From the IMG/VR virus record IMGVR_UViG_2895374923_000001, positions 27,860-91,859 of that record: a stretch of DNA of 64,000 bases; one strand, given 5' to 3'. Numbering within the stretch: position 1 is the stretch's first letter; each line of letters starts with the position of its first letter. The notes beneath the pieces were generated by a model that saw nothing but the letters and a program-made list of their open reading frames with translations, was not told the origin of the DNA and searched no databases. The translations under genes were made by a program, and so were the position numbers. The stretch comes from a virus (Duplodnaviria > Caudoviricetes). This document shows positions 11,898-64,000 of this stretch, in pieces.

Positions 11898-11949
11898 ATA
11901 CGCGATCTTGGCATTCTGCGCGATCAAGGAAGTGCCTGGTCAGTACAAG

Positions 11950-14987: not shown

Positions 14988-15000
14988 GCCCGTCCCCTCA

Positions 15001-15150
15001 TCAGACTTATACAGACCTATATCCGCAGCATAGTGCACTGATGCAGCTCGCCAGACAACCCCCTACACCGCCATTCATTCATCACTACAGATCACTACTG
15101 AAAAATGCAGGCGAGGTCTGTTGTAGAAGTCTGTATAAGTCTGTAGTGTT
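15001..15150. promoter_or_regulatory. cI/cro switch: 10-bp-phased GTCTGTA/CTGTAG operator repeats and cro promoter
   Basis: CAGACTTATACAGACCTATA (15002-15021), ATCACTACAG/ATCACTACTG (15081-15100), AGTCTGTATAAGTCTGTAG (15128-15146); TTGTAG-N17-TAGTGT, then leaderless ATG 15157. Confidence 0.7.
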
Positions 15151-34810: not shown

Positions 34811-35071
34811 ATGGCTGAGCTGGTCGAAGAGGTCGGGTCAGGCGACCGGCGCAGGGCGTTGAAGGCGTTGAGGGACAAGCTGGCGGCCGAGCTTTCGGGC
34901 TCGGAGGGGCGGACGTCGGCCGCGCTGGCGAAGGAGCTCGTGGCCGTGCTGAGGGAGCTGGATTCGCTGCCGTTGCCGAAGGAGGCGAGCTCTGTTGACG
35001 ATCTCGCCGCCAAGCGTGCTGCTCGGCGCGCAGGCGCCTCGGGTCTCGACGGTTCCACCTCGGTTCAGTAG
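34811..35071 (+). CDS. terS: Terminase small subunit
   Basis: Position; homology to 1159..1404. Confidence 0.85.
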   Translation: MAELVEEVGSGDRRRALKALRDKLAAELSGSEGRTSAALAKELVAVLRELDSLPLPKEASSVDDLAAKRAARRAGASGLDGSTSVQ

Positions 35072-38693: not shown

Positions 38694-38703
38694 GGAGCAG
38701 ACC

Positions 38704-40110
38704 ATGAATCCGAGTGAGAGGCTGGCAGCCGTCGAGGACGAGCTGCGGGCCATCCACGAGGCGGCCGGAGACGAGCCGCTCACCGACGAGCAGCAGGCCC
38801 AGTGGGATGAGCTGCGCAGCGAGCGCGGCCGGCTGCAGGAGACGATCCGCCGCCAGGAGGAGCGCCGGGAGGAGGTGCGCAGCCTGGCCGAGCGGCCCGG
38901 CCGTACCGAGGCCGGCGACGGCGCCCGCGGCGCCCCGCAGGTTATGACGAAGGTGGACCCGTTTGCCGTGCTGGAGGATCGCAGCCTGCACGGCGGCGAC
39001 CTGCAGCGGGCGCTGACCGACGCCAATCTGAAGGCGCTGGAAGAGCGTGACCTGGGCGGTGCCGACAACGAGCGGCACGTCGAGACGCTGCTGCGGCGGC
39101 ATGGCGGCGACACCCGGTGGGCATCCAACCTGCTCGCGCGCTCCCGGCCGGAGTACGAGGCCGGGTTCTCCAAGATGATGACGGGCAGGCAGGAGTACCT
39201 GACCTACGAGGAGCGCGCCGCGATGGCCGTCGGTACGGCTACCGCCGGCGGGCTGCTCGTGCCGACCCACCTGGACCCGACGCTGATCCTGACCAATGCC
39301 GGGACCTCGAACGTGATCCGTGGCATCGCGCGGGTGGTGACGCTGACGGTCGGCAATGTCTGGCACGGCGTCACCACGGCGGGCGTGACCGCGTCGTGGG
39401 ACGGCGAACTCGTCGAAGTATCCGATGACACGCCGGCGCTCGCCGCCGCGACCGTCTCGACCGTGCAGGCGCAGTCGCTGGTGCAGGCGTCCATCGCCGC
39501 GTTCGAGGACATCGCCGGCCTCAGCTCGGACGTGCTGATGCTGTTCGCCGACGCCCGCGACCGGCTGGAGGGCGCCGCGCACGCGACCGGCTCCGGTTCC
39601 GGTCAGCCGAAGGGCATCTTCACCGCGGTCAACGCCTCCGCCTCGCTGCAGGTCACCTCGACCACGGCGGCGACGATCGGCCTGGTCGACCTGCACTCGC
39701 TGTATCGGACGCTGCCGGTGCGTTGGCGCGGCCGCGGCACGTGGCTGACCAACCCGCTCTACAGCCTGGCAATCAAGGCGCTGGGCACCGCGGTGTCGGC
39801 GAGCTTCTCGACCGACATCACGCAGGCGATGGCAGGAAGCCTGCTGGGCCGGCCGCTGGTGGAGTCGGACGACGCGCCGACTACGCAGACCACGACCGCG
39901 CTCGACAACGAGATCATCTTCGGAGACTTCTCCGGATACACGATCGTGGACATGCCGGGTGGGTTCTCGGTGGAGTTCATCCCGCACATGTTCAACACCG
40001 CCAACAACCTGCCGGACGGCCGCAGGGCCTGGTTCGCATACTGGCGCAACGGCGCCGACGCGACCAATCTGGCCAGCTTCCGGATGCTGGTGGACAAGAC
40101 CAGCGCCTGA
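38704..40110 (+). CDS. Major capsid protein (HK97 fold, delta domain)
   Basis: Coiled-coil N-terminus, GGLLVP, G.G.GQPKGI, LLGRPL, IIFGDFS. Confidence 0.93.
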   Translation: MNPSERLAAVEDELRAIHEAAGDEPLTDEQQAQWDELRSERGRLQETIRRQEERREEVRSLAERPGRTEAGDGARGAPQVMTKVDPFAVLEDRSLHGGDLQRALTDANLKALEERDLGGADNERHVETLLRRHGGDTRWASNLLARSRPEYEAGFSKMMTGRQEYLTYEERAAMAVGTATAGGLLVPTHLDPTLILTNAGTSNVIRGIARVVTLTVGNVWHGVTTAGVTASWDGELVEVSDDTPALAAATVSTVQAQSLVQASIAAFEDIAGLSSDVLMLFADARDRLEGAAHATGSGSGQPKGIFTAVNASASLQVTSTTAATIGLVDLHSLYRTLPVRWRGRGTWLTNPLYSLAIKALGTAVSASFSTDITQAMAGSLLGRPLVESDDAPTTQTTTALDNEIIFGDFSGYTIVDMPGGFSVEFIPHMFNTANNLPDGRRAWFAYWRNGADATNLASFRMLVDKTSA

Positions 40111-43930: not shown

Positions 43931-46372
43931 GTGGCGCACCGGTTCAACGCCGACAACCAGGACTACTTCCGGACCGCGGCCTGGGGGCAGACCGCGCAAT
44001 GGTCGATCTGCATCTGGGCCAAGATCTCCACCGACCGCAACACGTACAGCACAATCTGGTGCGTCGACAACGGCACCGGCGACCTCTACGTGCTGCAAAG
44101 CAACAGCGACGGCACCACAATGGAGCTGCTGGATGACGCCCTGACCCCCAAGGGCAGCCTGGCCATGACGGTGGGCACCTGGTACTACTGGGGCGTCTCG
44201 ATCAACGGGGCCGCCGGGACGATCGTCACCCGCCCCGCCACCAGCAACACCTTCACGCTCACCACCTGGGCCTCCGGGCTGTCACCGCACACCACCATTC
44301 AGACCATCGGCATCGGCGAGTCAGCCTGGAACGGCGAGTGGTTCAACGGCTGCGTCGCCGCCTGCAAGATCTATCGCAACGCCAGCCTCACCCAGGCCGA
44401 GCTCGAAGAAGAGTCGTGGACGATCCTGCCGCGACGGACCACGGACCTGTACGCCTGGTATCCGTGGACGGTCCCGAGCCAGGTCGACTATTCGGGTAAC
44501 GGCAACACCCTGAGCGGTGGAGGCGCGAGCCCCACCACCGAGGATGGCCCGCCCATCTCCTGGGCCGGCGCGGCACCGCTCATCTTCCGGCCGCTGAGCG
44601 CCAACGCCACCGCCACGCCGCCGGTCATCGCAGGCACCGCATCGTGTCCGGCGCCGTCCCTGTCGGCCGACGCCGGCGTCACGCCCGGTGTCGTCGCCGC
44701 CAGCGCGGCAGTGCCGGCCGCGACCGTCTCGGCGGGCGCGACCGCGGCTCCGGGCGTCATCTCGGCCGGCGCGTCCATCGCCGCCCCCGCGCTGTCGGCA
44801 GGCTCGACGGTCGCCGTCGACGCCGTGGCGGCCGCCGCATCCACGCCGCCGGCCACGCTGTCGAGCGGCGCCGCCACCGCGCCCGACGTGACTACCGCCG
44901 CGGCGACGGTCGCCGCGGCGGCGCTGACCATCGGCCCAGAGGCTGCGGCAGTGGCCGTTGCCGCGTCGGTACCCGGCCCGGGCCTGTCGGCCGGGGCGTC
45001 TGCGGCGCCGCCCGCGGCCGAGGCGGTTGCATCGGCGCCGAGCGTCACCGTCTCGGCCGGGGCGACGCCTACGCCGCCGGCCGCCGCCGTAGGGGCTTCC
45101 CTTTCTGCAGCGGCGGTCTCGGCCGGTGCCGGCGCCGGTCCGCCGGTGGTCACCGCCTCCGCGGCGGTTCCGGCTCCGGGCCTGGCGGCCGGTGCGGGCG
45201 TCGAGGCGGTCACGGTTTCGGCGGCTGCCAGCTTGCCCGCGGTGGCCGTCACCCAGGGTGCCGAGGTGGCCGCCGCGCCGGTGACGGCCCTGGCGACGCC
45301 GGCGGGGCCGGTTGTTTCCGCGGGCGCGACCCATTCGGCGGCCGCGGTCACAGCGGCAGCCACACTGGCCGCGGCGTCGCCGTCCGCAGGCGCCACGGCC
45401 GGACCGGCGCTGGTCCAGGTCGCGGCCGCCGTATCGGGCGTGACGGTGTCGGCTGGAGCTTCCGCCGCACCCGGGGCGGTGCCGGCCGCCGTGGCGCTGC
45501 CCGCGCCGGGCGTGGCCACGGCCGCAAGCGCGGCGCCGCCCGTCGCGACCGCCGCCAGCTCGCTCGCCGCGGCGACGCTGTCGGCGGGCTCCGGCGTGAG
45601 CTCCTCCGTCGTAGCCGGCAGCGCCGAGGTGTCCGCGCCGGCCGTATCGGCGGGAGCGGGAGCCGCACCGGCGCACGTCGCGGCCACGGCGGCGCTGCCC
45701 GAGGCGGTGGTGTCGATCGGCGGCGACGCCGGCGTCAACGCCGCGGCGGTGGCCGCCACGGCCGCCGTCGGCGTCCCGGCGCTGTCAGCCGGGGCGACAC
45801 CGGCGGCCGCCGCGATCACAGGCGCGGCCTCCATGCCGGCAGCGGTGCTTTCGGCGGGTGCCGCGCTCGCGCCGCCGCTCCTCGCGGCTACGGCCGTGCT
45901 GGCGGCCGCGAGCCTGTCGGCCGGAGCCGCAGCCGGCCCGGGGCCGGTCGTGGTCGCCGTCGCCATCCCGGCGCCGCTCGCGGCGGCCGGTGCGGGCGTG
46001 GGGCCCGCGCTGGTGACCTGCCTGGTGGCGATCACCGCGCCGGACGCTGCGGCGTCGAGCAGCGTGAGCGCGACCGTGGTCACGGCCGCGGTATCGCTGC
46101 CGGGAGCAGCCGTTTCGGCCGGCGCGGCGCCTGCCCCGGCCGTGATCGCGGTGAGCGTGCAGGTCGGCGCCGAGGCAGAGACCGGCACAGCGCTGGCCGA
46201 CCTCGACGCCGAAGCCCTCGTGGCCGGACTGATCCAGGCGGTCGTGCAAGTCGTCGCCCGGCGCGACGCCGAGGCGCTCGTCGTCGCCCGGCGGGAGGCC
46301 GCCGTGCAGGTGGCCGGCGGCCGCGACGCCGATGTGACCGTGGCAGCCCGGCTGGATGCCGCCATCACCTGA
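43931..46372 (+). CDS. Fibre-like protein: N-terminal LamG/ConA-like domain plus ~24 Ala/Val/Pro/Ser-rich 22-aa repeats
   Basis: WSICIWAK...GTWYYW...FNGCVAACKIY...LTQAEL; repeat GATAAPGVISAGASIAAPALSA. Confidence 0.75.
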   Translation: MAHRFNADNQDYFRTAAWGQTAQWSICIWAKISTDRNTYSTIWCVDNGTGDLYVLQSNSDGTTMELLDDALTPKGSLAMTVGTWYYWGVSINGAAGTIVTRPATSNTFTLTTWASGLSPHTTIQTIGIGESAWNGEWFNGCVAACKIYRNASLTQAELEEESWTILPRRTTDLYAWYPWTVPSQVDYSGNGNTLSGGGASPTTEDGPPISWAGAAPLIFRPLSANATATPPVIAGTASCPAPSLSADAGVTPGVVAASAAVPAATVSAGATAAPGVISAGASIAAPALSAGSTVAVDAVAAAASTPPATLSSGAATAPDVTTAAATVAAAALTIGPEAAAVAVAASVPGPGLSAGASAAPPAAEAVASAPSVTVSAGATPTPPAAAVGASLSAAAVSAGAGAGPPVVTASAAVPAPGLAAGAGVEAVTVSAAASLPAVAVTQGAEVAAAPVTALATPAGPVVSAGATHSAAAVTAAATLAAASPSAGATAGPALVQVAAAVSGVTVSAGASAAPGAVPAAVALPAPGVATAASAAPPVATAASSLAAATLSAGSGVSSSVVAGSAEVSAPAVSAGAGAAPAHVAATAALPEAVVSIGGDAGVNAAAVAATAAVGVPALSAGATPAAAAITGAASMPAAVLSAGAALAPPLLAATAVLAAASLSAGAAAGPGPVVVAVAIPAPLAAAGAGVGPALVTCLVAITAPDAAASSSVSATVVTAAVSLPGAAVSAGAAPAPAVIAVSVQVGAEAETGTALADLDAEALVAGLIQAVVQVVARRDAEALVVARREAAVQVAGGRDADVTVAARLDAAIT

Positions 46373-49121: not shown

Positions 49122-52100
49122 GTGGGCCGCGTTGTCGCCGTCGACCTGGTCGGCCGGGACGTCACCCTCTCCAAGACCATCAAGTCGGCGCGCGAGCGCG
49201 TCACCGACCTGCACAAGACCATCGAGCACGCCAACCGCAAGCAGCGCGAGAGCCTGGATGCGCTCGGCCAGGGCGCGGTCGTCTCCGGCGCGGCCCTGGT
49301 GGCCGGGTTCGGGGTCGCGGTCAAGGCGACGATGGAGTTCGACAAGGCCATGAGCCACGTCGGGGCCGTCTCCAACGCCTCGGCCAAAGACCTGGACGGG
49401 CTGCGCAAAGCCGCGCTGCAGGCGGGCAAGGACACGAAATACTCGGCCACCGAGGCCGCCCAGGCCGAGGCCGAACTGGCCAAGGTCGGCATCTCCGCGG
49501 CCGACATCATGGGCGGCGCGCTCAAGGGCGCCCTGTCGCTTGCCGCGGCGGGCCAGCTGGAGCTGGAAGAGGCCGCCACGCTGTCCGGCCAGGCGATGAA
49601 GATCTTCAACCTGCAGGGCAAGGACGTCGAGCGGGTCGCCGACGCGCTGGCGGCGGGCGCGAACAAGTCCGCCGCCGACGTGCATCAGCTGGGCGAGTCG
49701 CTGAAGGCCGGCGGACAGATGGCGGCGCAGGCCGGGCTGGATCTGGAGGACACCGTCGGTGTGCTGGCCGCGTTCTCCGACAACGCCCTGATCGGCTCCG
49801 ACGCCGGCACCTCTCTCAAGACGATGCTCATGCATCTGGCCAACCCCACGAACAAGAGCGCGGACCTGATGGAGGAGCTTGGCCTGTTCGCCTACAACGC
49901 GCAGGGCAGTTTCGTCGGGCTGGAACATCTGGCCGGGCAGCTCAAGGACAGGCTCGGCGGGCTGACCCAGCAGCAGCGCGACGCCGCGATGGCGCAGATC
50001 TTCGGCTCCGACGCCATGCGCGGCGCGGCGATCCTGTACAAGATCGGCGCGGAGGGTGTGCGCAAGTACACCGACGCGGTCTCCGAGCAGGGGGCGGCCT
50101 CGAAGGTGGCCGCCAAGAACATGGACAACCTCGCCGGCGACCTGGAGAAGCTGAAGGGCAGCGTCGAGACGGCGCTGATCGAGGGCGGCTCGGCCTCCAC
50201 CGGGGTGCTGCGCCGCCTGGTGCAGGCCGCTGACAGCGTCGTGAACGCGTTCTCGGCGATGCCGTCCGGGGCGCAGGGCGCGGTCGTTTCGATCGCCGGG
50301 GTGGCGGGCGCCGCCAGCCTGGCCGCGGGCGGGCTGATCTTCCTCATCCCGAAGATCGCCGAAACGAAGGCGGCGATGCTGGCGCTCGGCATCACCGCCG
50401 ACGGGCTGAAGGCCAAGCTCGCCACCCTGGGCAAGGCGCTGGCGCTGATCGCCGCGACAGTGATCGCGGTCGACCAGGTCAACAAGCTGACCTCGACCCT
50501 GGCCGGCGCTCACGTGGAGGCCGACCAGCTCACCGAGGACCTGAAGAAGCTGGCCGCCACCGGCAAGCTGTCGGGCAAGATGTCCGAGCAGTGGACCGGC
50601 GCGTTCGACGATGCCGCCGACGCCCCGAAACGCTTCGGCGACGCGATCCGGGAGATCGCCGACCCCACCCTGTGGGAGCGGCTGATGAGCCACCCCATCG
50701 ACGCGATGGCCGACGCCCTGCCGATCCTTGACGGCAACTTCCAGCAGCTGCAGCGCAAAGTCGAATCGGTGGACAAGGCGCTGGCGGCGATGGCGACCTC
50801 AGGCAACGTCGAGCAGGCCAAGCAGGCGTTCGGGAAGATCGCCGAGCAGGCCAAGGCGGCCGGCGTCCCCGTCAACCGGCTGGCCGAGGTGTTCCCCCTC
50901 TACACCGCGGCCGCCAACAGCTCGGTGGCCAAGACCAACGCCGCGGCGGTGACACAGCAGAAGCTCGCCGCCGACTCCCAGAAGGCCGCCGAGTCCATCG
51001 ACCGCCAGCGGGCCGCGCTGGACCGCTTGAACAACGCGCTGCTGGAATCACGCGACGGCGAGCTGGAGTTCGAGGAAGCCCTCGACAACGTGACGTCGGC
51101 GTTCAAAGAGAACGGGGCCGCGGTCAACAAGAGGACCGGCGCGTTCAACATCGACACCGCCGCAGGCCGGGCCAACGAGCGCGCAGTGATCGCGGCGGCG
51201 CGGGCGGCCCGCGATCACGCACTGAAGGTCTTCGACCAGACCAAAAGCGCCAAGGACGCCAACGAGGCGTTCAAGAAGCACATCGAGAAGCTGGTCGGCG
51301 TCAAGGGAGCCTCCAAGGAAGCACGCCAGGCGATCAAGGACCTGATCGCCAAGTACATCGAGATGCCCAAGGCGATCAACGACGCAACCGACAAGATCAA
51401 GACGCCCAAGAAGGTGCAGATCAAAGTCTCGGCCGACGGGACAACCTTTACAGCAGGCAAGGTCCGGGCCACGATCTTCGCCAAAGGCGGCGAGGTGCCG
51501 ATGCAGCCGGGCGGCTCGCGCCACAAGGACAGCGTGCACGCCATGCTTCGGGTCGGCGAGCACGTGTGGACGCCAGAGGAGGTTGACAAGGTCGGCGGTC
51601 AGCAAGCCATGCTGCGCCTGCGGCAGATGGTCCGCTCCGGCCGGACGCAGCTGCCCGCCTTCGCCCAGGGCGGCCCTGTCGGCTACAAGACACTCCCCAC
51701 CCCGTACCGGACTGGCCCCTCGCTCACCCAGCTGCGCGGCTACCTCGCCAGGCGAGAGAACGCCTACCAGCGGATGACCAACGCCATCGGCACATTCCTG
51801 GCCAAGGAGATCACTGCCCGCATGGGCGGCGTCGGCCTGAAGGCCGTGCAGGCCGCCCGAACCCAGATCGGCGTCCCCTACAGCTGGGGCGGCGGCGGCC
51901 CAGGCGGTCCCGGCTACGGGTTCGCGCAGGGCGCCGGGATCCGCGGCTTCGACTGCTCCAGCCTGATGCAGTACGGCTGGTACAAGGCCAGCGGCAAGGT
52001 CATCCCGCGCACCACCTACGGGCAGTGGCCGTGGACCAGCCACATCTCCAAGCCCGCCCCGGGCGACCTGGGGTTCACCAGCTGGGGCCGCAACGGCCCG

Positions 52101-52442
52101 GGCCACGTCGTCATGTACTCCGGCCCCGGCCGGGTCATCCAGGCGCCCTTCACCGGCGCCCGCGTCAACGAGGGCCCCGGCAGCGGCTACCGGTGGGGCC
52201 GGCCGCCGATCGGCCGCTGGCGCGGCGGCCGGGTGCAGCCGGGCCAGGCATACATGGTCGGCGAGCGCGGCCCGGAGATGCTGCACGTCGGCTCCCCGGG
52301 CCGCATCCAACCCAGCGCGGGCGGCCTGACCATCACCGGCGATGTGCATTTCCACGGCGTCAGCGACATCCGCGCGATGGTCCAGGAGCTGCAGACCTAC
52401 GCCAAGAACACCGGTGGCATCACGTTGAAGCTGCGCACCTGA
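49122..52442 (+). CDS. Tape measure protein with C-terminal NlpC/P60 peptidase domain
   Basis: TP901-like core (FDKAMS...YSATEAA...GSDAGTSLK); GVPYSWGG...FDCSSL...GHVVMY. Confidence 0.93.
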   Translation: MGRVVAVDLVGRDVTLSKTIKSARERVTDLHKTIEHANRKQRESLDALGQGAVVSGAALVAGFGVAVKATMEFDKAMSHVGAVSNASAKDLDGLRKAALQAGKDTKYSATEAAQAEAELAKVGISAADIMGGALKGALSLAAAGQLELEEAATLSGQAMKIFNLQGKDVERVADALAAGANKSAADVHQLGESLKAGGQMAAQAGLDLEDTVGVLAAFSDNALIGSDAGTSLKTMLMHLANPTNKSADLMEELGLFAYNAQGSFVGLEHLAGQLKDRLGGLTQQQRDAAMAQIFGSDAMRGAAILYKIGAEGVRKYTDAVSEQGAASKVAAKNMDNLAGDLEKLKGSVETALIEGGSASTGVLRRLVQAADSVVNAFSAMPSGAQGAVVSIAGVAGAASLAAGGLIFLIPKIAETKAAMLALGITADGLKAKLATLGKALALIAATVIAVDQVNKLTSTLAGAHVEADQLTEDLKKLAATGKLSGKMSEQWTGAFDDAADAPKRFGDAIREIADPTLWERLMSHPIDAMADALPILDGNFQQLQRKVESVDKALAAMATSGNVEQAKQAFGKIAEQAKAAGVPVNRLAEVFPLYTAAANSSVAKTNAAAVTQQKLAADSQKAAESIDRQRAALDRLNNALLESRDGELEFEEALDNVTSAFKENGAAVNKRTGAFNIDTAAGRANERAVIAAARAARDHALKVFDQTKSAKDANEAFKKHIEKLVGVKGASKEARQAIKDLIAKYIEMPKAINDATDKIKTPKKVQIKVSADGTTFTAGKVRATIFAKGGEVPMQPGGSRHKDSVHAMLRVGEHVWTPEEVDKVGGQQAMLRLRQMVRSGRTQLPAFAQGGPVGYKTLPTPYRTGPSLTQLRGYLARRENAYQRMTNAIGTFLAKEITARMGGVGLKAVQAARTQIGVPYSWGGGGPGGPGYGFAQGAGIRGFDCSSLMQYGWYKASGKVIPRTTYGQWPWTSHISKPAPGDLGFTSWGRNGPGHVVMYSGPGRVIQAPFTGARVNEGPGSGYRWGRPPIGRWRGGRVQPGQAYMVGERGPEMLHVGSPGRIQPSAGGLTITGDVHFHGVSDIRAMVQELQTYAKNTGGITLKLRT

Positions 52443-52443
52443 C

Positions 52444-54309
52444 ATGGCGTTCCCGATCCTGAACGTCGCGATCGACTTCGAGAACAACGGCACCTTCACC
52501 GACGTCAGCGCCTACTTGATGCACTTCAAGATCAATCGCGGGTCCAGCCGGGTGGACGGGCCGCTGATCCGGTACGAGGCCGGCACGTGCGAGCTGAAGC
52601 TCAACAACTCCGACAGGCGCTTCGACCCCAGCAACGGCTCGGGCCCGTACACGCTTCCGTCCGGCAGCGCGGCCTCGGGCATCCAGCAGGCCGCGTGCTC
52701 GATCACGCAGGTGGTCGGGCATGGCTTCTCCGTGGCCGTGGCCTCGACGGACCCCGAGACGATCGAGGCGAGCCTGCGCGACTCCACCGTCGCCACCTCC
52801 ACCTCGACGAGCTACACCTGCGCCAAGCCGACCGGCACCGCCTCCGGCGACATCCTGGTCGCCTACCAGTCCGCGGACTGGGGGAACGCCTCGTCCATGT
52901 CCACGCCGACCGGCGGCGCCACCTGGCAGCCGCTCACAAGCCGGGACGCGGGCGCCAACAACTTGCACTCCAAGGTCTGGTGGAAGGTCGCGGGCGCCTC
53001 AGAGCCGTCCACCTACACCTTCGCGCAGGCGTCCGGGTCGGACGGGGTGACCATCGTCGCGGCCATCCGGGACGCCTCCGGCACACCGACCTTCGACTCG
53101 ACCGACAACCCTGGCACCGCCTACTTCGACACGCCCTCGCTGGTCCCGTCCGGCACGGCCGACTATGAGATGCGGTTCGTGTCTGCTGTCGGCGGCGGCT
53201 CTGGGGCGTCGTGGGACTGGACGGCCACGGACTCCTACACCGAGGCGGAGGACGCCCAGAGCACGTCGTTCACGACCGCTTCCATGGCTCACAAGTCGTT
53301 GTCGGGTCTGTCCAGTGGTTCCGGCGGCACGCTGGTCAAGCCCATGCGCCCGGTCAGGGTCAGAGCGATCTGGAACTCGGTGACATACGACCTGTTCAGA
53401 GGGTATGTGGACGCCTGGAAGGTCATCTGGGACGGTCCGAACTACAGCGAGGTGACCGTGCCGTGCACCGACGCTTTCAAGATCTTCTCCAACTTCGACC
53501 GGCGCTCCACCGACGCCGTCTCGGCCCCCTCCGAGCTGTCCAGCGCTCGCGTCAGCCGCATCCTGGACAACGCCGGCTGGTCGGCCAGCCTGCGCAGCAT
53601 CGCGACCGGCGACGTCACCCTGCAGGCGACCACGCTCGACGGCAACCTGATGGACGAGCTGCTGATCACCAACGAGACCGAGGTCGGCGAACTGTACGTC
53701 ACCGCGGACGGGAAAGTGTTCTTCAGGAACCGGGCGGCGATCAACAACGACTCTCGCTCCACCACCTCGCAGGCGACCTTCGGTGATGCCGGCGGCTCCG
53801 AACTGCCGTACACGGACCTGACGCTGGCCAGCGATGACACCCAGCTGGTCAACAGGGTCATCATCACCCGGGTGGGCGGCTCCGAGCAGGTGGCCGAGGA
53901 CACCGCCTCACAGGAGGAGTTCCTCGTCCGCACCTGGGAGCGGTCGGACCTGCTGTTCAACAGCGACAGCTCCGCGCTGAACATGGCGCAGTGGGTGCTG
54001 TCGCTGAGCGCGCAGCCCGAGCAGCGCTTCGAGACCATCACGATCATGCCGCAGTCCGACGAATCCAACCTGTTCCCCCAGTCCCTGAACAGGCTGATCG
54101 GCGACCGGATCACGATCCGGCGACGGCCACCCGGCGGCGGCGACATGATCGAACAGGACTATTTCATCCGCGGCATCGAGCACGACGCGAGCCCCGCCGG
54201 CCCCTGGTACACGACCTGGACCCTGCAGAGCTCGGCTGCCGGCGGCAGCTTCTTCCTCATCGGCGACTCGACCAGAGGCCGCCTCGATCTGAATCCGCTG
54301 GGATTCTGA
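52444..54309 (+). CDS. Minor tail (hub/distal-like) protein with inserted Ser/Thr-rich domain
   Basis: First gene after TMP; LNNSDRRFDP...KPMRPVRVRA...LFRGYVD. Confidence 0.8.
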   Translation: MAFPILNVAIDFENNGTFTDVSAYLMHFKINRGSSRVDGPLIRYEAGTCELKLNNSDRRFDPSNGSGPYTLPSGSAASGIQQAACSITQVVGHGFSVAVASTDPETIEASLRDSTVATSTSTSYTCAKPTGTASGDILVAYQSADWGNASSMSTPTGGATWQPLTSRDAGANNLHSKVWWKVAGASEPSTYTFAQASGSDGVTIVAAIRDASGTPTFDSTDNPGTAYFDTPSLVPSGTADYEMRFVSAVGGGSGASWDWTATDSYTEAEDAQSTSFTTASMAHKSLSGLSSGSGGTLVKPMRPVRVRAIWNSVTYDLFRGYVDAWKVIWDGPNYSEVTVPCTDAFKIFSNFDRRSTDAVSAPSELSSARVSRILDNAGWSASLRSIATGDVTLQATTLDGNLMDELLITNETEVGELYVTADGKVFFRNRAAINNDSRSTTSQATFGDAGGSELPYTDLTLASDDTQLVNRVIITRVGGSEQVAEDTASQEEFLVRTWERSDLLFNSDSSALNMAQWVLSLSAQPEQRFETITIMPQSDESNLFPQSLNRLIGDRITIRRRPPGGGDMIEQDYFIRGIEHDASPAGPWYTTWTLQSSAAGGSFFLIGDSTRGRLDLNPLGF

Positions 54310-57130: not shown

Positions 57131-57462
57131 GCGGCGACGTGCTCGGCGTGCTCGGCACGGTCCTGGCGGCGCTGCTCGGCGGCGGCCTGATCACCGGCCT
57201 GCTGACCTACCTGCGCGACCGGCGCCGCGACAAGGGCGAGCAGTCCATCGGCGTGGTCACCAGCCTGGAGCGGCTCAACGACAGGCTCACGCAGCAGGTG
57301 GCCGACCTGCAGACCGCGCTCGATGAGGAGCGGCGCCTGCGCCGGACCCTGGAAGACAAGATCGACGAGGAGCGGCGGGCGCGGCGCGCGCTGGAGGCAC
57401 GGCTGGAGGACCGCATGGCGCTGCTGGAACGACGCACCGAGGAAGGAGAGGCAGAGTCATGA
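57127..57462 (+). CDS. TM plus coiled-coil lysis-region protein
   Basis: N-terminal TM, heptad C-terminus. Confidence 0.7.
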   Translation: MSGDVLGVLGTVLAALLGGGLITGLLTYLRDRRRDKGEQSIGVVTSLERLNDRLTQQVADLQTALDEERRLRRTLEDKIDEERRARRALEARLEDRMALLERRTEEGEAES

Positions 57463-58208
57463 CCGTAATCACTCGTAGGCAGTGGCGCGCCCGAGCCCCC
57501 AGGAAAGTCTCCAGGATCAGCAAGACGCGCGGGGTGAAGGTCCACTACGTCGGCGGGCGCGTCGACCCTCGCCTCACCGGCGACCATGATCGGTGCCTGG
57601 ACCTCATGCGGCAGATTCAGGGCTGGCACATGGACGGCAACGGCTGGAGCGACTTCGCCTACAGCTACGCGGTCTGCCCGCACGGCGACATCCTCACCGG
57701 CCGGGGCCCCGGCGTGCTGGTGGCCGCCAACGGCCCCGGCAACAATCAGGCGCACTACGCCGTCCTCGGCATGGTCGGCGCCACCGGCCTGGTCGAGCCG
57801 ACCGACGCCATGCTGGTCGGCATCCTCGACGCCATCGAGATCCTTCGAGAGCGCGGCGGCGCTGGCCGCGAGATCAAGGGCCACCGCGACGGATACGCCA
57901 CCGATTGCCCTGGTACCGCGTTGTACGGCTGGGTACGGCGCGGTGCCCCGCGGCCCGGCGGCGCGCCGGCGGACCCCAACGCCTGGCCCGGCCGCCTGCT
58001 GGAGTACCCGCCGATCACGCGCGGAGAGGATGTCCGCCGCTGGCAGGAGGCCGCCGTACGGCTGGGCTACGGCCTGGCGGTGGACGGCGCGTACGGCCCG
58101 GACTCCCGGACGGTCTGCCGCAACATCCAGCGCGCCGCCGGCCTGGAGGATGACGGCATTGTCGGGCAGCTCACCTGGGCCGCCACGGTCAACCCGCCTG
58201 CCAAATGA
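57459..58208 (+). CDS. Endolysin: N-acetylmuramoyl-L-alanine amidase plus PG-binding domain
   Basis: ITRRQW.AR, VHY, HMDGNGWSDFAY, GHRD...TDCPG, VDG.YG...DGIVG..TW. Confidence 0.93.
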   Translation: MTVITRRQWRARAPRKVSRISKTRGVKVHYVGGRVDPRLTGDHDRCLDLMRQIQGWHMDGNGWSDFAYSYAVCPHGDILTGRGPGVLVAANGPGNNQAHYAVLGMVGATGLVEPTDAMLVGILDAIEILRERGGAGREIKGHRDGYATDCPGTALYGWVRRGAPRPGGAPADPNAWPGRLLEYPPITRGEDVRRWQEAAVRLGYGLAVDGAYGPDSRTVCRNIQRAAGLEDDGIVGQLTWAATVNPPAK

Positions 58209-58328: not shown

Positions 58329-58580
58329 ATGTCTCAGCGACGACTTTTGACCGGCACCTACTGGCTCGACACCGGCGAACGCATGCTCCGCGCGGCGACC
58401 GCGGCCGCGCTCGGCTTGATCGGCACCGGGACGGTGGGCATCGTGGACATCGCCTGGCCGGCGGTCGGCAGCATCGCTGCGGGCGCCGCCGTGGTGTCCC
58501 TGCTGATGTCCATCGTGGCGGGCGCCGGGGGCGACCCGGCAACCGCGGGGTTCACCACCCGGACTGGGCCACGCATGTAG
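58329..58580 (+). CDS. Holin (r1t-like)
   Basis: YW.DT.ER...VDIAW...VSLLMSI. Confidence 0.85.
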   Translation: MSQRRLLTGTYWLDTGERMLRAATAAALGLIGTGTVGIVDIAWPAVGSIAAGAAVVSLLMSIVAGAGGDPATAGFTTRTGPRM

Positions 58581-58624: not shown

Positions 58625-58662
58625 ACGAAGCCCGCCCCCGGGTCTCCGGGGGCGGGCTTCGT
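58625..58662. terminator. Bidirectional terminator ending the late operon
   Basis: ACGAAGCCCGCCCCCGG-gtct-CCGGGGGCGGGCTTCGT between convergent genes. Confidence 0.85.
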
Positions 58663-58684
58663 CGCGTTCTCAGCTATCTGGCCT

Positions 58685-59128
58685 TCACATGGCCATCTGA
58701 AGGTTCTTCAGCGGTAGGACGGTCTGCGGGCCGCTCTCGACCTTGGTCACGACTGCGTGCATCACGCCGACGTACAGGTCGCGGGTCAGGTCCTTGCGGG
58801 GCACGATGACGGTCATCTCCAGCCGGTCGCCGACGGCGAGGGCGGCTGTGATGTCGCAGCGGGTCAGTGCGTGGTCGAGGGCCTTGCGGAAGTCGGCGCC
58901 CTCGGCCTCGGCCAGTCGCTCGACTAGTTCGTCGTCGACGGGGGCGTAGATCCAGATGTTGACGTCCCAGGCGTGCCCTTCGAGGCAGTCGAAGACGTAT
59001 GCCTGGTCGTGCTGGCGGAGTAGGCCGGTGATGGGCCGGTCGTGGCGGTCGTAGACCTCGATCAGTTCTGCGTTGTCGGCCGGCTCCCAGGGAAGAGCGC
59101 CGAAGCGGAGGTCTATCTGTTTAGACAC
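58685..59128 (-). CDS. Hypothetical protein; candidate immunity/antitoxin
   Basis: GTG 59128 with GGAGG RBS, overlapping the upstream stop; acidic. Confidence 0.6.
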   Translation of the reverse strand: MSKQIDLRFGALPWEPADNAELIEVYDRHDRPITGLLRQHDQAYVFDCLEGHAWDVNIWIYAPVDDELVERLAEAEGADFRKALDHALTRCDITAALAVGDRLEMTVIVPRKDLTRDLYVGVMHAVVTKVESGPQTVLPLKNLQMAM

Positions 59129-59534
59129 GGTCGGCCTCCATCCAAATAGGCGAGCTAAAGCATTCATCGAACTGGGCACTTTCATACTCGGTCCATTCTG
59201 TGCCTGCGTCCAGGCTGACCGATACGTGGCGGGGGTTACTTTTACCGCCGTCGTGGGTGACGGTGAATCCGGCTTGCCGTAGTTGACCTGCGGTTGTGTG
59301 TCGTACGCCGTCGCCGATGGCGGGGCTGCGGCGCCTGACGATGAGGTCGATCATCTGCTTGACGTCCAGATGTCCGAGTGTCAGGGACATGGCGGCTTCG
59401 TTGGGGCGCAGGTGGTTGCGGAAGGGCACGATGCAGATGCCGGGCGCCAGTTTGCTGCCGAGCTGGGTGAGCACGGCGTCGTCGGGAAGGGGTGGCCGCG
59501 GCGGCCGGTTCGCCTTCGGTGAGGGATGCGGCAT
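59121..59534 (-). CDS. Candidate Tse2/ART-like toxin-domain protein
   Basis: LPDDAV...TTAGQLRQAGFTV...NPRHVSV resembles polymorphic-toxin tips. Confidence 0.5.
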   Translation of the reverse strand: MPHPSPKANRPPRPPLPDDAVLTQLGSKLAPGICIVPFRNHLRPNEAAMSLTLGHLDVKQMIDLIVRRRSPAIGDGVRHTTAGQLRQAGFTVTHDGGKSNPRHVSVSLDAGTEWTEYESAQFDECFSSPIWMEADRV

Positions 59535-59865
59535 AGGCGGTCATCTTCGCTGGCACGCATGATCGCTCGCAGCGGAATGAAAGGCTCTCACGTTCTGATG
59601 CGCACCTGGCGAGCTGCAGGCGGTGTCTTTGCCGATACGATCAGCTCGATTCGCTGCGCTGGGGGCGCACGATGGCGGGGCCCGGCGGCTGCGGGCCGGG
59701 CATGCGCAAGGCCCGTCCACCACAGTGGGCGGGCCTTCGTCGCGTTGTGGGCTCTCCCGCGGTGTGGTCTGCGGGAGAGCCCCTGGAGGAGAGGCTGCCG
59801 CACAGCCTCTGTGTCTGGTGAGACGCCGCGGGCGTCCCGGTTGTTCGCGGCGTACCATCGGCGGT

Positions 59866-60144
59866 GTGGATGAGCAGGTGTGGACCGTGGCCTGGTGGGG
59901 CTCCGGCTGGGGGGTGTGGCGCGGCGAGGAGCCCGACCTCACCGCCCCTCCCGTGTACGCCACCGGCAACCTCACCCACGCAGCTCCGGAAGCCGCCTCA
60001 AGTTGGGCGCTTGGTGTGGTGCCGAGTCATCCCAGGCTGAGTGTTCAATGCCGGTTCCGCGGCGATCCGGATGGCGAGGCCAAGTTCATCGCTCGTATGC
60101 GGGAGCGGCAGTCGCGCCCCTGGTGGCGGCGATTGTTCGCCTAG
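59866..60144 (+). CDS. Trp-rich hypothetical protein (leaderless)
   Basis: TACCAT -10 at 59853, GTG 7 nt later. Confidence 0.5.
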   Translation: MDEQVWTVAWWGSGWGVWRGEEPDLTAPPVYATGNLTHAAPEAASSWALGVVPSHPRLSVQCRFRGDPDGEAKFIARMRERQSRPWWRRLFA

Positions 60145-60623
60145 TTGCTGAGGTCGCGGGCGTTCTCGCAGTCCACGCTCGCCTCCTGGGTGTCGCTGGC
60201 GCGGAACTCCTTGCCGGTGTCGAAGGTGCCCGCCTGCGAGACGTGCGCCTTGTAGCGGCCCGACCAGCAGGGCGAGTGCGCGTAGGAGTAGGCGTGGTCA
60301 CGGCCGGGTAGCTCGGCGAACTCCCGGCTGCCGACGTCGAGCCACGTTCCCCCGAAACGGCTCTCCTTGTAGGACAGGGCGATCCGGGTGATTTGGGTGG
60401 CGACGACGGTGGGGCTGTTGCACTGCTGGTGCACCTGGACGCGTACGCGCGGGGCCTCGCCGGCGAACCTGACGGCCTCGATGTGCACGGCCTGGAAGCA
60501 GCCGACGCCCGGCGCCCCTGCGGGCGGGGGCGGGGCGTCGGTGGTGCCGCTGCAACTGGTCGGTGCTGCGGTCAGGGTGAGGGTTGTGCCGATCGCTGAG
60601 ACGACTCTGATGAGCGGTGTCAT
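60141..60623 (-). CDS. Secreted protein or lipoprotein
   Basis: Signal-like N-terminus ending TSC, Pro linker, Cys-containing beta domain. Confidence 0.65.
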   Translation of the reverse strand: MTPLIRVVSAIGTTLTLTAAPTSCSGTTDAPPPPAGAPGVGCFQAVHIEAVRFAGEAPRVRVQVHQQCNSPTVVATQITRIALSYKESRFGGTWLDVGSREFAELPGRDHAYSYAHSPCWSGRYKAHVSQAGTFDTGKEFRASDTQEASVDCENARDLSN

Positions 60624-60731
60624 GGCTTGTCCTGTCTGGCTGACAGATGAGATAGCGAGCGGGTGGTGGACGGGTCCACCTGTGTGACGCTGGGGGCGGC
60701 CCGGCGGGTTCGCGCGGGCCGCCCTGGGCCG

Positions 60732-60782
60732 CTACCCGGTGGTGGAGCCTGCTCCACCCCAGTTGCTGTCGTGGTCGCGCAT
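60732..60782 (-). CDS. 16-aa peptide MRDHDSNWGGAGSTTG
   Basis: Near-perfect SD GGAGGAGGTGAT, upstream TAGAGT -10, downstream hairpin 60694-60724. Confidence 0.5.
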   Translation of the reverse strand: MRDHDSNWGGAGSTTG

Positions 60783-60835
60783 GTGATCACCTCCTCCCGC
60801 CCCGGGGGATCTTGTGTCCCGGGGAGACTCTAGGG

Positions 60836-61075
60836 TCAGGCGGCCAGGCCGACCTTGAGGCGGCGGCGCTGTGGTGGGCTGAGCCCGGCCCGGATGCCGT
60901 ACGGCTCGTCTCGCTCGAGCGCGTCTTGCAGACACGGCTCGCGCACGGGGCAGCTCTGGCAGATCTGCCGGGCGGCGATGGCGTGCTCGCCCGCCTCCGG
61001 GAACCACGCTTCTGGGTCCGCTTGGGCGCATAGGGCGGAGTCCTGCCAGGAGCCTGTGGCGTCGGTGTCAGACAT
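60836..61075 (-). CDS. WhiB-family transcription factor
   Basis: W...ALCAQADPEAWFPE...ICQSCPVREPCL...YGIRAGLSPPQRR. Confidence 0.92.
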   Translation of the reverse strand: MSDTDATGSWQDSALCAQADPEAWFPEAGEHAIAARQICQSCPVREPCLQDALERDEPYGIRAGLSPPQRRRLKVGLAA

Positions 61076-61102
61076 GATCACTCCTCGATGGGGGTCCGGG
61101 GT

Positions 61103-61266
61103 TGTGGCGGTGGCCCCTGCCACGGGGTGCCACGCCGGGGTGCCACGGGCCTGCCACGGGCCTGCCACGGCGGGTGCCACAGGGGGTGCCACAGGGGGTG
61201 CCACGAGGCCGTGGCACCTCCCCTGACCTGTAGGCCCCCGCGTCCGGCCCGTTACGGGTGCCACGC
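61103..61266. repeat. clt-like locus (TraB recognition repeats)
   Basis: Nine direct TGCCAC copies (61118, 61128, 61141, 61152, 61163, 61175, 61187, 61199, 61259) plus one inverted (61211), immediately 3' of traB. Confidence 0.85.
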
Positions 61267-61279
61267 GCCCGCCGGCGTG

Positions 61280-63334
61280 TCACGCGTCCACCAGCCCGCG
61301 GTCGCGCTCGCTCACGAGCCGGTCGGGGAGCAGGATCCAGACGCCGCCCTCGCGGCGCAGGAGTCCGTCCTCGTAGAGCCTGCCGGCCACCTTCTGCGCC
61401 CAGGGCCGGGAGTAGCCGAGGGCTTCCCAGATGGGGCGCATGTCGGCGGTGGCGATCTCGGTGCGGCCTTCCTCGGCCCACTCGCACAGCGTCTCCAGCA
61501 TTCGGCGGCGTGCCTGCTCGGGGGACGCCTTCGGCTTGGCCGGGGGCGGGGCGGGGAAGGTGATGCTGGGGTCGGCGCTCGAGACGATCGGCTGGCGGGG
61601 GTCGATGTCGTCGTCGCCTGGCTCGGGGTGGATGCCGGCCTCGCGCAGCGCCTTGTCGGCCTGGCTGTTGTCGGCCGCGGTGCCCTTGTCGCGCTCGTCT
61701 CGGGGGTCGTCGTGGCTGTGGCCGTTGCTATCGCTCGCGGGTGCGGCGGCGCGGGCTCGTGCGGCGGCGACGATGCGGGCGGTGAACTCGTCGTCCGGTG
61801 TGGTCTTGGTGTGGGTGTGCTCGGCGACGTGGGCCCGCATGGTGGCGTAGCGCTCGGCGTCGGTCTCGCCCCAGTTCCAGGTGTGCAACGGTACGGTGGC
61901 GAGCTCGGCCGCCAGGCCGTTGACGTCGATCAGCGCACGGCCGGGGAAGTCCGCCTTCCAGTCTTCCGGGGAGCTGCCCGGTGCCAGCTCGGCGCTATTC
62001 TGCCGGTCGGTCAGGGACCGGCCTGCCGCCGCGGCGGTCATCATCCCGAACGTCATCCGGCCGAACTGCCCCTTCACCACGCCGATGTCGTCGACTTCGC
62101 TGTGGTGCAGGTCCTGCAGGGATACGAACACCCGGCCGCCGGCGGACCGGATCTCCTTCAGTGTGGACTTGAACGCATCCCAGTCCTCATCGCTCATCTC
62201 GAGGACGAGCTTGGGGAACTCCTCCAGCCAGACGATCCAGTACTTCAGGCCGCAGCCTTGGCGCCAGGAGGCGTAGCCGCGCTCGGCCAGCCACTTCGTG
62301 CGCCGGGGGATTTCGGCGTTGATGCCGTTCAGCAGGGCGATTCCGCCCTGGGCGGTGTATTCGACGACGTGCAGGGCCGGGGCCAGGACGCCGAGCGTCT
62401 GGGAGTCCTTGGCCGGGTCGCTGGCGAACACGGCTGCGTCGGTGCGGGTGATGGCCTCGCCGAGCCAGCCCCAGGCGCCGCCGAACCCTTTGCCGGCGCC
62501 GGTGGTGCCGGTGAGGGCGACGTTGCCGTCGATGATGACGACCTCGCACACGTCCAGGGTCTGGAATAGGCCGAGATGGGCCGGGTCGGCGATGCTTGCG
62601 CCCGGGCGGGAGGGGCCGGGCCAGCGCGGCGGGGTGTCCAGCGCGGTCGGGTCGGACAGGTCGATGTGGAGCTCGCGGCGGGAGGTGCGCGAGGGTGCGC
62701 CGTTGAGGGCGCCCGGGGGGAGGTTCGCCCCGGACTCGACCGTGGCCAGGCCGCCGTTCTGGAGGAACTGTTCGGCGTCTTCGCCGGGGTCGAGCCGGAG
62801 CACTCCGGAGATCTTGTGCAGGCCCGCCTTGGTGGTGCGGACCGTCATCGGATCGGCTTGGGTCTCGCGGGCAGCGAGCGCGAACACCGCCTGCAGCGGG
62901 TCGTCGGCGGCCGCGATGGCCTTGGGCCCGCCCGCCTGGGGGTCGCGCGCGGACTCCTCGACCAGGATGCGCAGCACCCAGGAGATGGCCAGCGTCAGCC
63001 ACAGCAGGGCGCTCCACTGCCAGATCGCGGCGAACGGCAGCAGTTCGTGCGCGAGGCAGGCCCCGGACACGGCGGCGGCGGTGCCGGCGAGATGCAGGCG
63101 GATCTTGCGCGGGCGTGTCCGGGCGTGGACCCATAGCCACGCGGTCAGCAGCGTGCCCAGGACGACGAGTACGACCCGACCGGCGGGGGTGTCGGGGGTG
63201 AAGGCCGTGGTGATGCCGATCAGCCCGGCATAGCCGATGAAGGAGACGAGCCCCACCATGATCGGTAGCGTGCGGGAGACGTAGCGGTGGGTGACCTGGG
63301 CCCGCACGGACTCCGCCGGCTGTTCCTTGCTCAT
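61280..63334 (-). CDS. traB: TraB conjugative FtsK/SpoIIIE-like dsDNA translocase
   Basis: N-terminal TMs, GTTGAGKG Walker A, IVWLEE Walker B, RSAG...SLQ, C-terminal wHTH (SRPWAQK...GLL). Confidence 0.9.
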   Translation of the reverse strand: MSKEQPAESVRAQVTHRYVSRTLPIMVGLVSFIGYAGLIGITTAFTPDTPAGRVVLVVLGTLLTAWLWVHARTRPRKIRLHLAGTAAAVSGACLAHELLPFAAIWQWSALLWLTLAISWVLRILVEESARDPQAGGPKAIAAADDPLQAVFALAARETQADPMTVRTTKAGLHKISGVLRLDPGEDAEQFLQNGGLATVESGANLPPGALNGAPSRTSRRELHIDLSDPTALDTPPRWPGPSRPGASIADPAHLGLFQTLDVCEVVIIDGNVALTGTTGAGKGFGGAWGWLGEAITRTDAAVFASDPAKDSQTLGVLAPALHVVEYTAQGGIALLNGINAEIPRRTKWLAERGYASWRQGCGLKYWIVWLEEFPKLVLEMSDEDWDAFKSTLKEIRSAGGRVFVSLQDLHHSEVDDIGVVKGQFGRMTFGMMTAAAAGRSLTDRQNSAELAPGSSPEDWKADFPGRALIDVNGLAAELATVPLHTWNWGETDAERYATMRAHVAEHTHTKTTPDDEFTARIVAAARARAAAPASDSNGHSHDDPRDERDKGTAADNSQADKALREAGIHPEPGDDDIDPRQPIVSSADPSITFPAPPPAKPKASPEQARRRMLETLCEWAEEGRTEIATADMRPIWEALGYSRPWAQKVAGRLYEDGLLRREGGVWILLPDRLVSERDRGLVDA

Positions 63335-63341
63335 TTTCGTC

Positions 63342-63785
63342 CTAGTCGTCGAGGGTGAACGCCGGGCGCCGTACGGTGCGCTTGGTCTTCTTGCCCTGCT
63401 TGGCGGCCTGGCGCTCCTCGTCGTCCTCCAGCGCGGCCAGCACCTGCTCGAAGTCGCGGTTGAGCTTGACGGCGTTCTTGGCGAACGCCTCGGCCAGCCG
63501 CTGCAGCGTCTCGCCTCGCTGTCGGAGCCTGCGCGTGCGGTAGCGGGCGGCCATCCGGCCCATCTTGTAGGTGTCGCGGATCATCGCGACGAGGTTGTCG
63601 TCGAGGTCTTCGACCGATCCTTCGACTCCCACTTCCAGCCGCATTCCGACGGCGCGCAGCTGGTCGGCGAAGTCGGCGACCGCGCTGGGTGAGGTCATCG
63701 GGATGGCGAACAGGGTCCGCAGGTCGGCCTTGGATTTGCCGGTTTGGGCGCGGCCCTTCCACACCATGCGCTTGCGAAGGGTCAT
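63342..63785 (-). CDS. TraA-like plasmid transfer protein
   Basis: Helical ~150-aa protein directly upstream of traB. Confidence 0.6.
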   Translation of the reverse strand: MTLRKRMVWKGRAQTGKSKADLRTLFAIPMTSPSAVADFADQLRAVGMRLEVGVEGSVEDLDDNLVAMIRDTYKMGRMAARYRTRRLRQRGETLQRLAEAFAKNAVKLNRDFEQVLAALEDDEERQAAKQGKKTKRTVRRPAFTLDD

Positions 63786-64000
63786 GCCGTACTCCAGGAC
63801 GAGGGATGAAGCTGCCGGGCCAGCCGGCGGAGCAGAACACGGGCGGGCGGCCCGCCGGCCAGCGCGGCGGCCAGGTCAACGCTCCAGACGATCGCGCCCG
63901 CGATGAGCGCGCCCAGGGCTTGGAGGGCGATGATCCATAGGTGGACGGGCGCGCCCAGGGCGAGGCGCAGGAGGTAGAGCGCCCACCAGACGGCGATCAC
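63782..64000 (-). CDS. Membrane protein (partial), possibly Spd-like
   Basis: Hydrophobic C-terminus coupled to the traA-like gene. Confidence 0.45.
   Translation of the reverse strand: MIAVWWALYLLRLALGAPVHLWIIALQALGALIAGAIVWSVDLAAALAGGPPARVLLRRLARQLHPSSWSTA

Follow-up and report, generated by a model that had tools for sequence, protein, structure and literature searches.

Background

Elements that combine a phage with a conjugative plasmid are already known from Streptomyces. According to papers that cite them, both pZL12/phiZL12 (Zhong et al. 2010, J Bacteriol 192:3747; cited in PMC3583192, PMC4487206) and pFP4 (Chen et al. 2012, Plasmid 68:170; cited in PMC6950372) are conjugative plasmid-phages, and pZL12 and the pZL12-like pSLE1 are free plasmids with parAB (PMC4487206). 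Here we describe element B, a prophage located in a 64,000-nucleotide stretch of DNA (hereafter, the window; G000:C2:27861-91860 of an 11.4-Mb, 55-contig genome) and in the 20 kb to the right of it, which were also read (as L001, where the position equals the window position minus 58000). The host is a soil bacterium of the genus Nonomuraea, family Streptosporangiaceae, and not a Streptomyces, as the original prediction, made from the window sequence, had it. Unlike pZL12, pFP4 and pSLE1, which are free plasmids, element B is integrated in a tRNA gene between attachment site (att) repeats and encodes a tyrosine integrase, and no ParB was found on its contig, C2 (ParA was not searched for separately); the extrachromosomal state and the partition genes that characterize the pZL12-type plasmid-phages are thus not seen here. 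Its transfer module is of the pSN22/pSVH1 type, traA-traB-clt-spd, unlike those of pZL12 and pFP4. In the literature, we found no description of an integrated prophage with a complete traA-traB-clt-spd module.

As in the Streptomyces plasmids pSVH1, pSN22, pIJ101, pJV1 and pWTY27 (PMC3583192, PMC4447253), the translocase of element B is predicted to be a membrane-anchored, FtsK-like TraB protein with a C-terminal winged helix; repeat units of 7-9 bp lie beside the 3' end of the translocase gene, and Spd-type membrane proteins and a GntR regulator are encoded nearby. The differences from the plasmids include the TraB identity of 25-39%, a new repeat word, GTGGCA(C/G)(C/G), a Walker A motif that ends in GKG, a GntR gene located 6.5 kb from traA instead of being divergent from it, and a replicon that is a phage. 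With the AICEs (integrative and conjugative elements of actinomycetes), element B shares its mode of insertion, into a tRNA gene by means of a tyrosine integrase, as well as an excisionase gene and the use of one Tra translocase to transfer double-stranded DNA, and classic AICEs with related TraA and TraB are present in the same genome (on contig C14) and in the same family. Unlike the AICEs, it consists of a full phage genome with its own replication initiator, spans 59 kb compared to the typical 9-24 kb, and has an att identity block that corresponds to the 5' half of the tRNA rather than to the 3' half. Whereas an AICE is recognized by an integrase, a Tra protein and a RepSA, RepAM or Prim-Pol replication protein within one att pair (Ghinet 2011, PMC3218068), searches for Prim-Pol and, on the arm, for the Pfam Rep families left element B with the integrase and the Tra protein, combined with a phage-type initiator.

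From the same genus comes PhiNon1 of N. gerenzanensis (PMC5431353), a chimeric prophage of 59,257 bp, nearly the size of element B, that has been seen both integrated in a tRNA and as a circle in multiple copies. Its authors drew a comparison with pZL12. Unlike element B, it integrates at the 3' end of tRNA-Val. A record of PhiNon1's size in the plasmid collection yielded no TraB match. The chromosomal TraB locus of N. gerenzanensis, considered as a candidate for the integrated PhiNon1, was rejected as it looks like a classic AICE (GntR, traA, traB, Prim-Pol).

Element B is a single integrated element

On the strength of its sequence, element B is probably an integrated temperate siphovirus that carries a double-stranded DNA transfer module of the actinomycete plasmid/AICE type as a fixed arm of its genome and so would have two routes of spread. 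The extent of the element is defined by two features.

11949-12023, minus strand: tRNA-Arg(TCT), the 5' 42 nt of which (11982-12023) form the attL core of element B
71200-71241 (L001:13200-13241): attR of element B, a perfect 42-bp copy (100% identity) of the 5' part of tRNA-Arg(TCT)

The right att was thus found where it had been anticipated, beyond 64 kb and in the form of a partial tRNA-Arg duplicate. In 9 other Nonomuraea genomes, an intact tRNA-Arg(TCT) gene adjoins a homologue of the ZIP-transporter gene that follows position 71241, so this position is the native tRNA site and the DNA to the left of it is inserted. The unpublished genomes G019, G024 and G030 play no part in the conclusions. 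The tyrosine integrases encoded on contig C2 are limited to one at C2:1563, which belongs to a third element, one at 10545-11849, in element A, a neighbouring prophage that is described below, and one at 12601-13692, in element B; no serine recombinase was detected on this contig by whole-genome integrase and resolvase scans. Given the att pair, the native tRNA flank in the relatives and the sole integrase, 12024-71241 is a single 59.2-kb element. An internal att site or tandem junction was considered and rejected because the region from 12.1 to 71.15 kb contains no tRNA-like remnant with a resemblance exceeding that of shuffled control queries. The scans agree with the original prediction in that no integrase, tRNA fragment or att was found between the holin gene and traB; the 58.6-61 kb interval in particular is free of an att site by the same shuffled-control comparison, and no second integrase, serine recombinase or Prim-Pol Rep that might define an independent AICE was found in element B to the right of the tra module.

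The gene order in related prophages bears on the same question. In G073 and G100, the prophages with the closest terminase large subunit (TerL; about 55% identity), a GntR homologue is encoded directly after the endolysin, and neither prophage has a TraB-family gene of any kind. Accordingly, the tra arm of element B, which is flanked by the lysis genes on one side and by a GntR gene on the other, sits between conserved phage end-genes and not outside of them.

The same tRNA-Arg(TCT) gene is used from opposite sides by the two neighbouring elements. The part duplicated by element A is, as usual, at the 3' end (46 nt), whereas element B duplicates the 5' 42 nt, and the two identity blocks share 11 nt in the anticodon loop. 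Because element B duplicates the 5' part, the functional tRNA copy has to draw both its 5' half and its promoter from this element. To our knowledge, att blocks covering the 5' half of a tRNA are rare.

The phage part of element B comprises the following genes, in addition to a gene for a Sak4-like recombinase in the left part of the element.

12140-12691, plus strand: GIY-YIG endonuclease-like open reading frame (ORF) between attL and int (Pfam GIY-YIG, E 2e-5; phrog_16880, endonuclease)
12601-13692, plus strand: tyrosine integrase, the sole integrase of element B (PF00589, E 4e-24)
14361-15038, minus strand: XRE-family repressor-like gene (HTH_31)
26710-27597, plus strand: phage replication initiation protein (phrog_2447, E 5e-35)
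34995-36425, plus strand: TerL (phrog_9, E 2e-82)
36583-37887, plus strand: portal protein (phrog_12)
37896-38693, plus strand: head maturation protease (phrog_80)
38674-40110, plus strand: major head protein (phrog_10)
49122-52442, plus strand: tape measure protein (phrog_1533, E 1e-90), of the same length as the 1102-aa tape measure protein of element A
52444-54309, plus strand: tail protein (PHROGs match), 81% identical to its element A counterpart
57459-58208, plus strand: endolysin (phrog_1493, E 1e-45)
58329-58580, plus strand: holin (phrog_443, E 8e-17)
58625-58662: hairpin with a 17-bp stem between the convergent late operon and tra arm (dG -48.7 kcal/mol, z -5.4, by folding)

The hallmark morphogenesis and lysis genes are all intact, full-length ORFs, and the terminase, portal, head, tape measure, lysis and integrase genes and the att sites of a temperate tailed phage are all in place; judged by this gene content, element B is an integrated temperate siphovirus of Nonomuraea. 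The hairpin at 58625-58662, which separates the late operon from the tra arm, is likely to be a bidirectional terminator, at the place where a terminator had been proposed originally; a consensus terminator scan did not pick it up because the hairpin is not followed by a T-run.

Two further observations concern the tail gene region. ARAGORN reports a tRNA-Arg(CCG) at 49252-49328, inside the 5' part of the tape measure ORF; given that the length of this ORF equals that of its counterpart in element A, this is probably either a spurious prediction or a tRNA embedded in the gene. Among the tail genes, where several long ORFs overlap, there is a tentative ORF of 813 aa (43931-46372) that has no Pfam or PHROG match and that includes, at 45-46 kb, a stretch with a G+C content of 81.5%.

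The transfer module

The right arm of element B, 11 kb in length, is transcribed leftward, towards the lysis genes. The components of the transfer module are as follows.

61106-61265, minus strand: clt-like array, nine direct GTGGCA(C/G)(C/G) copies as read on the traB strand and one inverted copy
61280-63334, minus strand: traB, 684 aa, predicted membrane-anchored, FtsK-like double-stranded DNA translocase with a C-terminal winged helix (NF041214 and fold)
63342-63785, minus strand: traA-like gene upstream of traB (NF041213, E 2e-4), 86% identical in the IMG/VR contigs L127 and L128
63782-64000, minus strand: beginning of the Spd-like membrane genes, which extend past the end of the window; small ORFs with two transmembrane segments continue to 64314

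The TraB protein aligns end to end with the NCBIfam model plasmid_TraB (NF041214, positions 22-634 of 639, E 4e-66, 224 bits) and has a full-length match to the PHROGs family phrog_24831 (E 2.5e-27), which is listed as being of 'unknown function'. There is no match to Pfam FtsK_SpoIIIE, and a search of the Protein Data Bank (PDB) by sequence gave nothing meaningful, so that the link to FtsK comes via fold search only. In an AlphaFold model built from 28 homologues (predicted local distance difference test score, pLDDT, of 77), the best PDB folds identified by Foldseek are the FtsK motor domains 6t8o, 2ius and 6t8b (E 6e-12 to about 1e-11, probability 1.0), followed by the conjugation protein TcpA; in the model, therefore, the FtsK/HerA-type motor fold is present. 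The three N-terminal hydrophobic segments (residues 23-41, 51-69 and 107-125) form long helices in the model, which provides the predicted protein with an N-terminal membrane anchor. At the C-terminus, the three modelled helices (605-621, 629-639 and 643-655) and the hairpin (659-668), with pLDDT of 80-92, together look like a winged helix. By its anatomy, that is, a modelled winged helix and an array adjacent to traB, the protein would be suited to read the clt repeats.

The original prediction of a complete TraB with transmembrane segments, Walker A and B motifs and a winged helix stands with respect to the hydrophobic segments and the modelled winged helix; of the motor motifs, Walker B reads LEE, and Walker A is a non-canonical GTTGAGKG, where the lysine is kept and the serine or threonine is replaced by glycine. 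In the alignment with the FtsK of the host, GATGAGKS corresponds to GTTGAGKG, VDE to LEE, and ARAAG...ATQR to IRSAGG...SLQD, so that the Walker lysine, the acidic pair, the arginine of RSAGG and the glutamine of SLQ are retained. Both the GKG and the aspartate replacement are shared by the members of the B subclade, and the homologues P0002, P0003, P0005, P0009 and P0012 have GKG or GKD as well; among them, P0002 (72% identity) and P0003 (57%) are the closest to TraB. Pattern scans that started from the single TraB protein revealed no close relatives in genome contigs or IMG/VR; an alignment was needed to find them.

The clt-like array consists of ten TGCCAC/GTGGCA repeats (61110-61265), spaced by 10-13 bp, between the traB stop codon and the whiB start, with the first repeat 15 bp past the stop codon. 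Of the 11 GTGCCAC sites in the window, 7 are packed within 138 bp, and the densest 200-bp window for GTGGCACC in the 11.4-Mb genome is this array, with 7 copies as opposed to 2 in the runner-up. The juxtaposition of TraB, a traA-like gene and a TGCCAC array near the holin gene, as first noticed in the window, is thus borne out by the NF041214 match, the FtsK fold and the ten repeats. The GTGGCA(C/G)(C/G) motif is kept after the 71%-identical TraB in L127. By contrast, an array of six or seven GTGGCCCC repeats follows the traB of element A, whose product is 33% identical to that of element B, and this octamer array is also found after the traB gene, with 62% identity in TraB, of the classic AICE on C14 (traB, Prim-Pol, int). 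The repeat word, therefore, tracks the TraB type, with the GTGGCCCC arrays accompanying the A-type TraBs and the motif of element B accompanying the B-type TraB.

Recurrence of the arrangement

The co-occurrence of traB with phage genes in actinomycete prophages, which had been suggested as a subject for a survey, is indeed found in the Nonomuraea genomes G113 and G083, a Herbidospora genome, element A and at least 6 of the 13 viral contigs of IMG/VR that encode TraB relatives. In G113, an A-like prophage lies between 53-bp tRNA-Lys repeats, with 71% identity in TraB and 83% in TerL. In G083 (Nonomuraea sp. NBC_01738), 43-bp tRNA-Ile repeats enclose an element of 47.3 kb. Its terminase is of another type (phrog_2), it also has portal, tape measure and integrase genes, and its arm has the same order as that of element B, namely, HAD, ATPase, orf187, traA and traB, followed by the convergent holin and endolysin genes. 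The Herbidospora genome shows the same geometry, with TerL 25 kb beyond traB. In at least six of the IMG/VR contigs, genes for lysis or tail functions are arranged convergently, within 3-9 kb, and a terminase was found in 3 of the 5 IMG/VR records that were searched; L127 and L128 encode B-type TraA (86%) and TraB (71%), with whiB downstream and a GTGGCA(C/G)(C/G) array. These relatives are classed as viruses by IMG/VR, with CheckV completeness of up to 84%. Across Streptosporangiales as a whole, the 58 TraB loci are mostly classic AICEs.

In the A-type clade, to which these measurements pertain, the ratio of nonsynonymous to synonymous substitution rates (dN/dS) in traB is 0.27-0.33 at a dS of 0.57-0.61, and dS is 0.67-0.70 for TerL and endolysin, which fits co-inheritance under purifying selection. 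Taken together, the comparisons support the inheritance of the tra arrangement as a unit, apparently as an arm that is conserved in a lineage of temperate phages capable of integration. An equally apt description of the same elements would be AICE-like elements with an entire phage inside.

Proposed mechanism and alternative explanations

By analogy, the mechanism most likely follows the pSVH1 paradigm (PMC4447253, PMC3583192). Excision by the integrase and the excisionase would produce a circle that carries clt; membrane-anchored TraB hexamers would use their C-terminal winged helix to bind the GTGGCA(C/G)(C/G) repeats and would drive the double-stranded circle, at the expense of ATP, into a neighbouring hypha; Spd-like proteins would then carry the circle across the septa within the recipient mycelium; and the phage replication genes and the integrase would establish the element in the recipient. 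Element B would thereby spread both in virions and by mating, and the latter route would require no phage receptor. Conceivably, a widespread lineage in Streptosporangiales and other mycelial actinomycetes is truly dual-mode, moving either in the virion or as naked double-stranded DNA via TraB and clt, and, owing to the distinct specificities of the TraB/clt pairs (GTGGCACC versus GTGGCCCC), two such phages can occupy a single tRNA site without cross-talk; this broader proposal is a real possibility that we would nevertheless hesitate to assert.

Several findings weigh against a dual-mode phage. The TraA family match is weak (E 2e-4), and the score of TraB against NF041214 falls far below the 800-bit equivalog cut-off. 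Because the Walker A motif is non-canonical, with GKG for GK[ST], and aspartate takes the place of arginine after the conserved glutamine, the ATPase activity of TraB is not assured. The dN/dS values were obtained on the traB of the A-type clade, not on B-type traB. A tblastn search with TraB found no match among 50,697 sequenced phage records, any plasmid-phages in that collection included, and the 59.2 kb of element B far exceed the 37-47 kb of its sister elements. The last two points, as this TraB is in no isolated phage and 59 kb may exceed the capacity of the head, are also what one would expect if element B was mainly an AICE with a defective or domesticated phage part, which moves only by excision and TraB-mediated transfer while particles are not made or do not carry it. 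The order att - tra - (insert) - replication - int - att, which is that of the classic AICEs of the same family (traA-traB, Prim-Pol, int), and the AICE-type Prim-Pol/D5 pair that element A keeps beside its integrase are compatible with this scenario, too. We consider it unlikely, nevertheless, in view of the intact, full-length morphogenesis and lysis genes of element B, the purifying selection on TerL and endolysin in the sister elements, and the classification of the relatives as viruses.

A decaying AICE remnant that was fused to an ordinary prophage by tandem integration at the same tRNA, with loss of the internal att, and that plays no role in the phage, appears to be a very unlikely source of the right arm. 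Tandem integration does occur at this tRNA, where at least three elements lie side by side, and the arm includes host-like cargo, such as a WhiJ-type cluster with a paralogue on contig C5 and a HAD hydrolase. Against this origin, there is no att remnant above the shuffled controls inside element B, the tra genes and the repeat array are intact, excisionase-like and GntR genes are located outside the tra module, beside attR, and the same layout is found with different integrases, tRNAs and terminase types and with TraBs diverged to 33% identity; such recurrence is not explained by a one-off fusion accident. The att pair, the single integrase, the genes beyond tra and the recurring layout thus uphold the original view of the module as prophage cargo. 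It is also conceivable, even if improbable, that the module acts only inside one mycelium, such that TraB and Spd, once infection or induction has occurred, transport phage DNA through the septal cross-walls and all compartments become lysogenic or productive, without mating between strains. In pSVH1, Spd proteins and TraB direct intramycelial spreading, SpdB2 homologues encoded by actinophages have been suggested to assist the spreading of phage DNA (PMC4447253), and the arm of element B encodes a DUF2637-like protein with three transmembrane segments and small proteins with two such segments upstream of traA. Yet, plasmid TraB and clt are sufficient for intermycelial transfer (PMC3583192), and the intramycelial and mating uses, which sequence does not distinguish, are not mutually exclusive.

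Other genes of the right arm

The remaining genes of the arm flank the transfer module on both sides.

58685-59534, minus strand: a pair of small cargo ORFs, 166 aa and 137 aa long, without family matches
60141-60623, minus strand: ORF of 160 aa, the N-terminus of which resembles a signal sequence or that of a lipoprotein; N. longicatena has a homologue downstream of traB
60836-61078, minus strand: whiB-like regulator of about 80 aa (PF02467, E 1e-20), with a homologue in the same place in L127 and L128
64311-65435: DUF2637-like protein with three transmembrane segments, beyond the window
between this gene and the ATPase gene: orf187
66360-66842: anti-sigma-type ATPase
67169-68431: XRE protein of the WhiJ-type cluster
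68591-69226: HAD hydrolase
69252-69602: excisionase-like gene (phrog_1840, E 3e-6)
70335-70745: GntR regulator, 450 bp from attR

Downstream of traB, the original prediction recognized only whiB and small cargo; these ORFs are seen, but the whiB gene is the short one listed here rather than an ORF of 142 aa that extends into the repeats. Past the tra module, beside attR, come the excisionase-like and GntR genes. GntR homologues accompany many traB loci yet follow the endolysin gene in the two TraB-less prophages mentioned above; the GntR protein of element B is a candidate TraR/KorA-type repressor of the tra operon. As to an AICE-type Rep, element B encodes no Prim-Pol, and the ORFs of the arm matched no Pfam Rep family, RepAM/DUF3631 included; there is no Pfam model for RepSA. 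The cluster that consists of the XRE gene, a small ORF, the ATPase gene and orf187 (65744-68431; L001:7744-10431) has a chromosomal paralogue at C5:188228-190923, with 49-67% identity, and weaker homologues of the ATPase and orf187 (39-41%) occupy the same arm position in the G083 prophage.

Neighbouring elements in the host genome

Element A, a 37.4-kb prophage that extends from window position -25460 to 11992 (C2:2400-39850), is located on the other side of the same tRNA; the 3' 46 bp of tRNA-Arg(TCT) that serve as its att recur 37 kb leftward, at C2:2400-2445. It is a mirror image of element B, with the order int, Prim-Pol/D5 replication, TerL, tails and lysis, cargo, traB, and traA beside the far att; the AICE-type pair of Prim-Pol and D5-like replication genes is found beside the integrase gene, at window positions 6391-8792. 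The identity between the two elements is 47% for TerL, 67-81% for tail and lysis genes and 33% for TraB.

Just to the left of the far att of element A, there is a third integrase gene (C2:435-2069), with an in-frame TGA in the six-frame match, which suggests that a third element in tandem is truncated by the end of the contig. Elsewhere in the genome, a classic AICE (traA, traB, GTGGCCCC array, Prim-Pol, int) is present in identical copies at C14:57315-68446 and C53:19453-30584, which may reflect either a duplication in the assembly or a chromosomal terminal repeat.

Implications

AICE surveys that require Int, Rep and Tra set aside the loci with fewer components as remnants, prophages or other islands (PMC3218068), and phage databases list the TraB family as being of 'unknown function', so the class of elements to which element B belongs falls between annotation schemes; as phrog_24831 carries no label, TraB-like genes in phage and prophage collections go unannotated. 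The neighbouring elements A and B, with their different TraBs and arrays, constitute a natural test of TraB/clt specificity. If element B and its relatives indeed spread in the two ways proposed here, an integrated phage would reach new hosts by mating, with neither a phage receptor nor killing of the donor, and could colonize an entire mycelium without lysing it. In the producers of many antibiotics, the boundary between prophages and conjugative elements would then be blurred, and the estimates of actinophage host range and gene flow would change.

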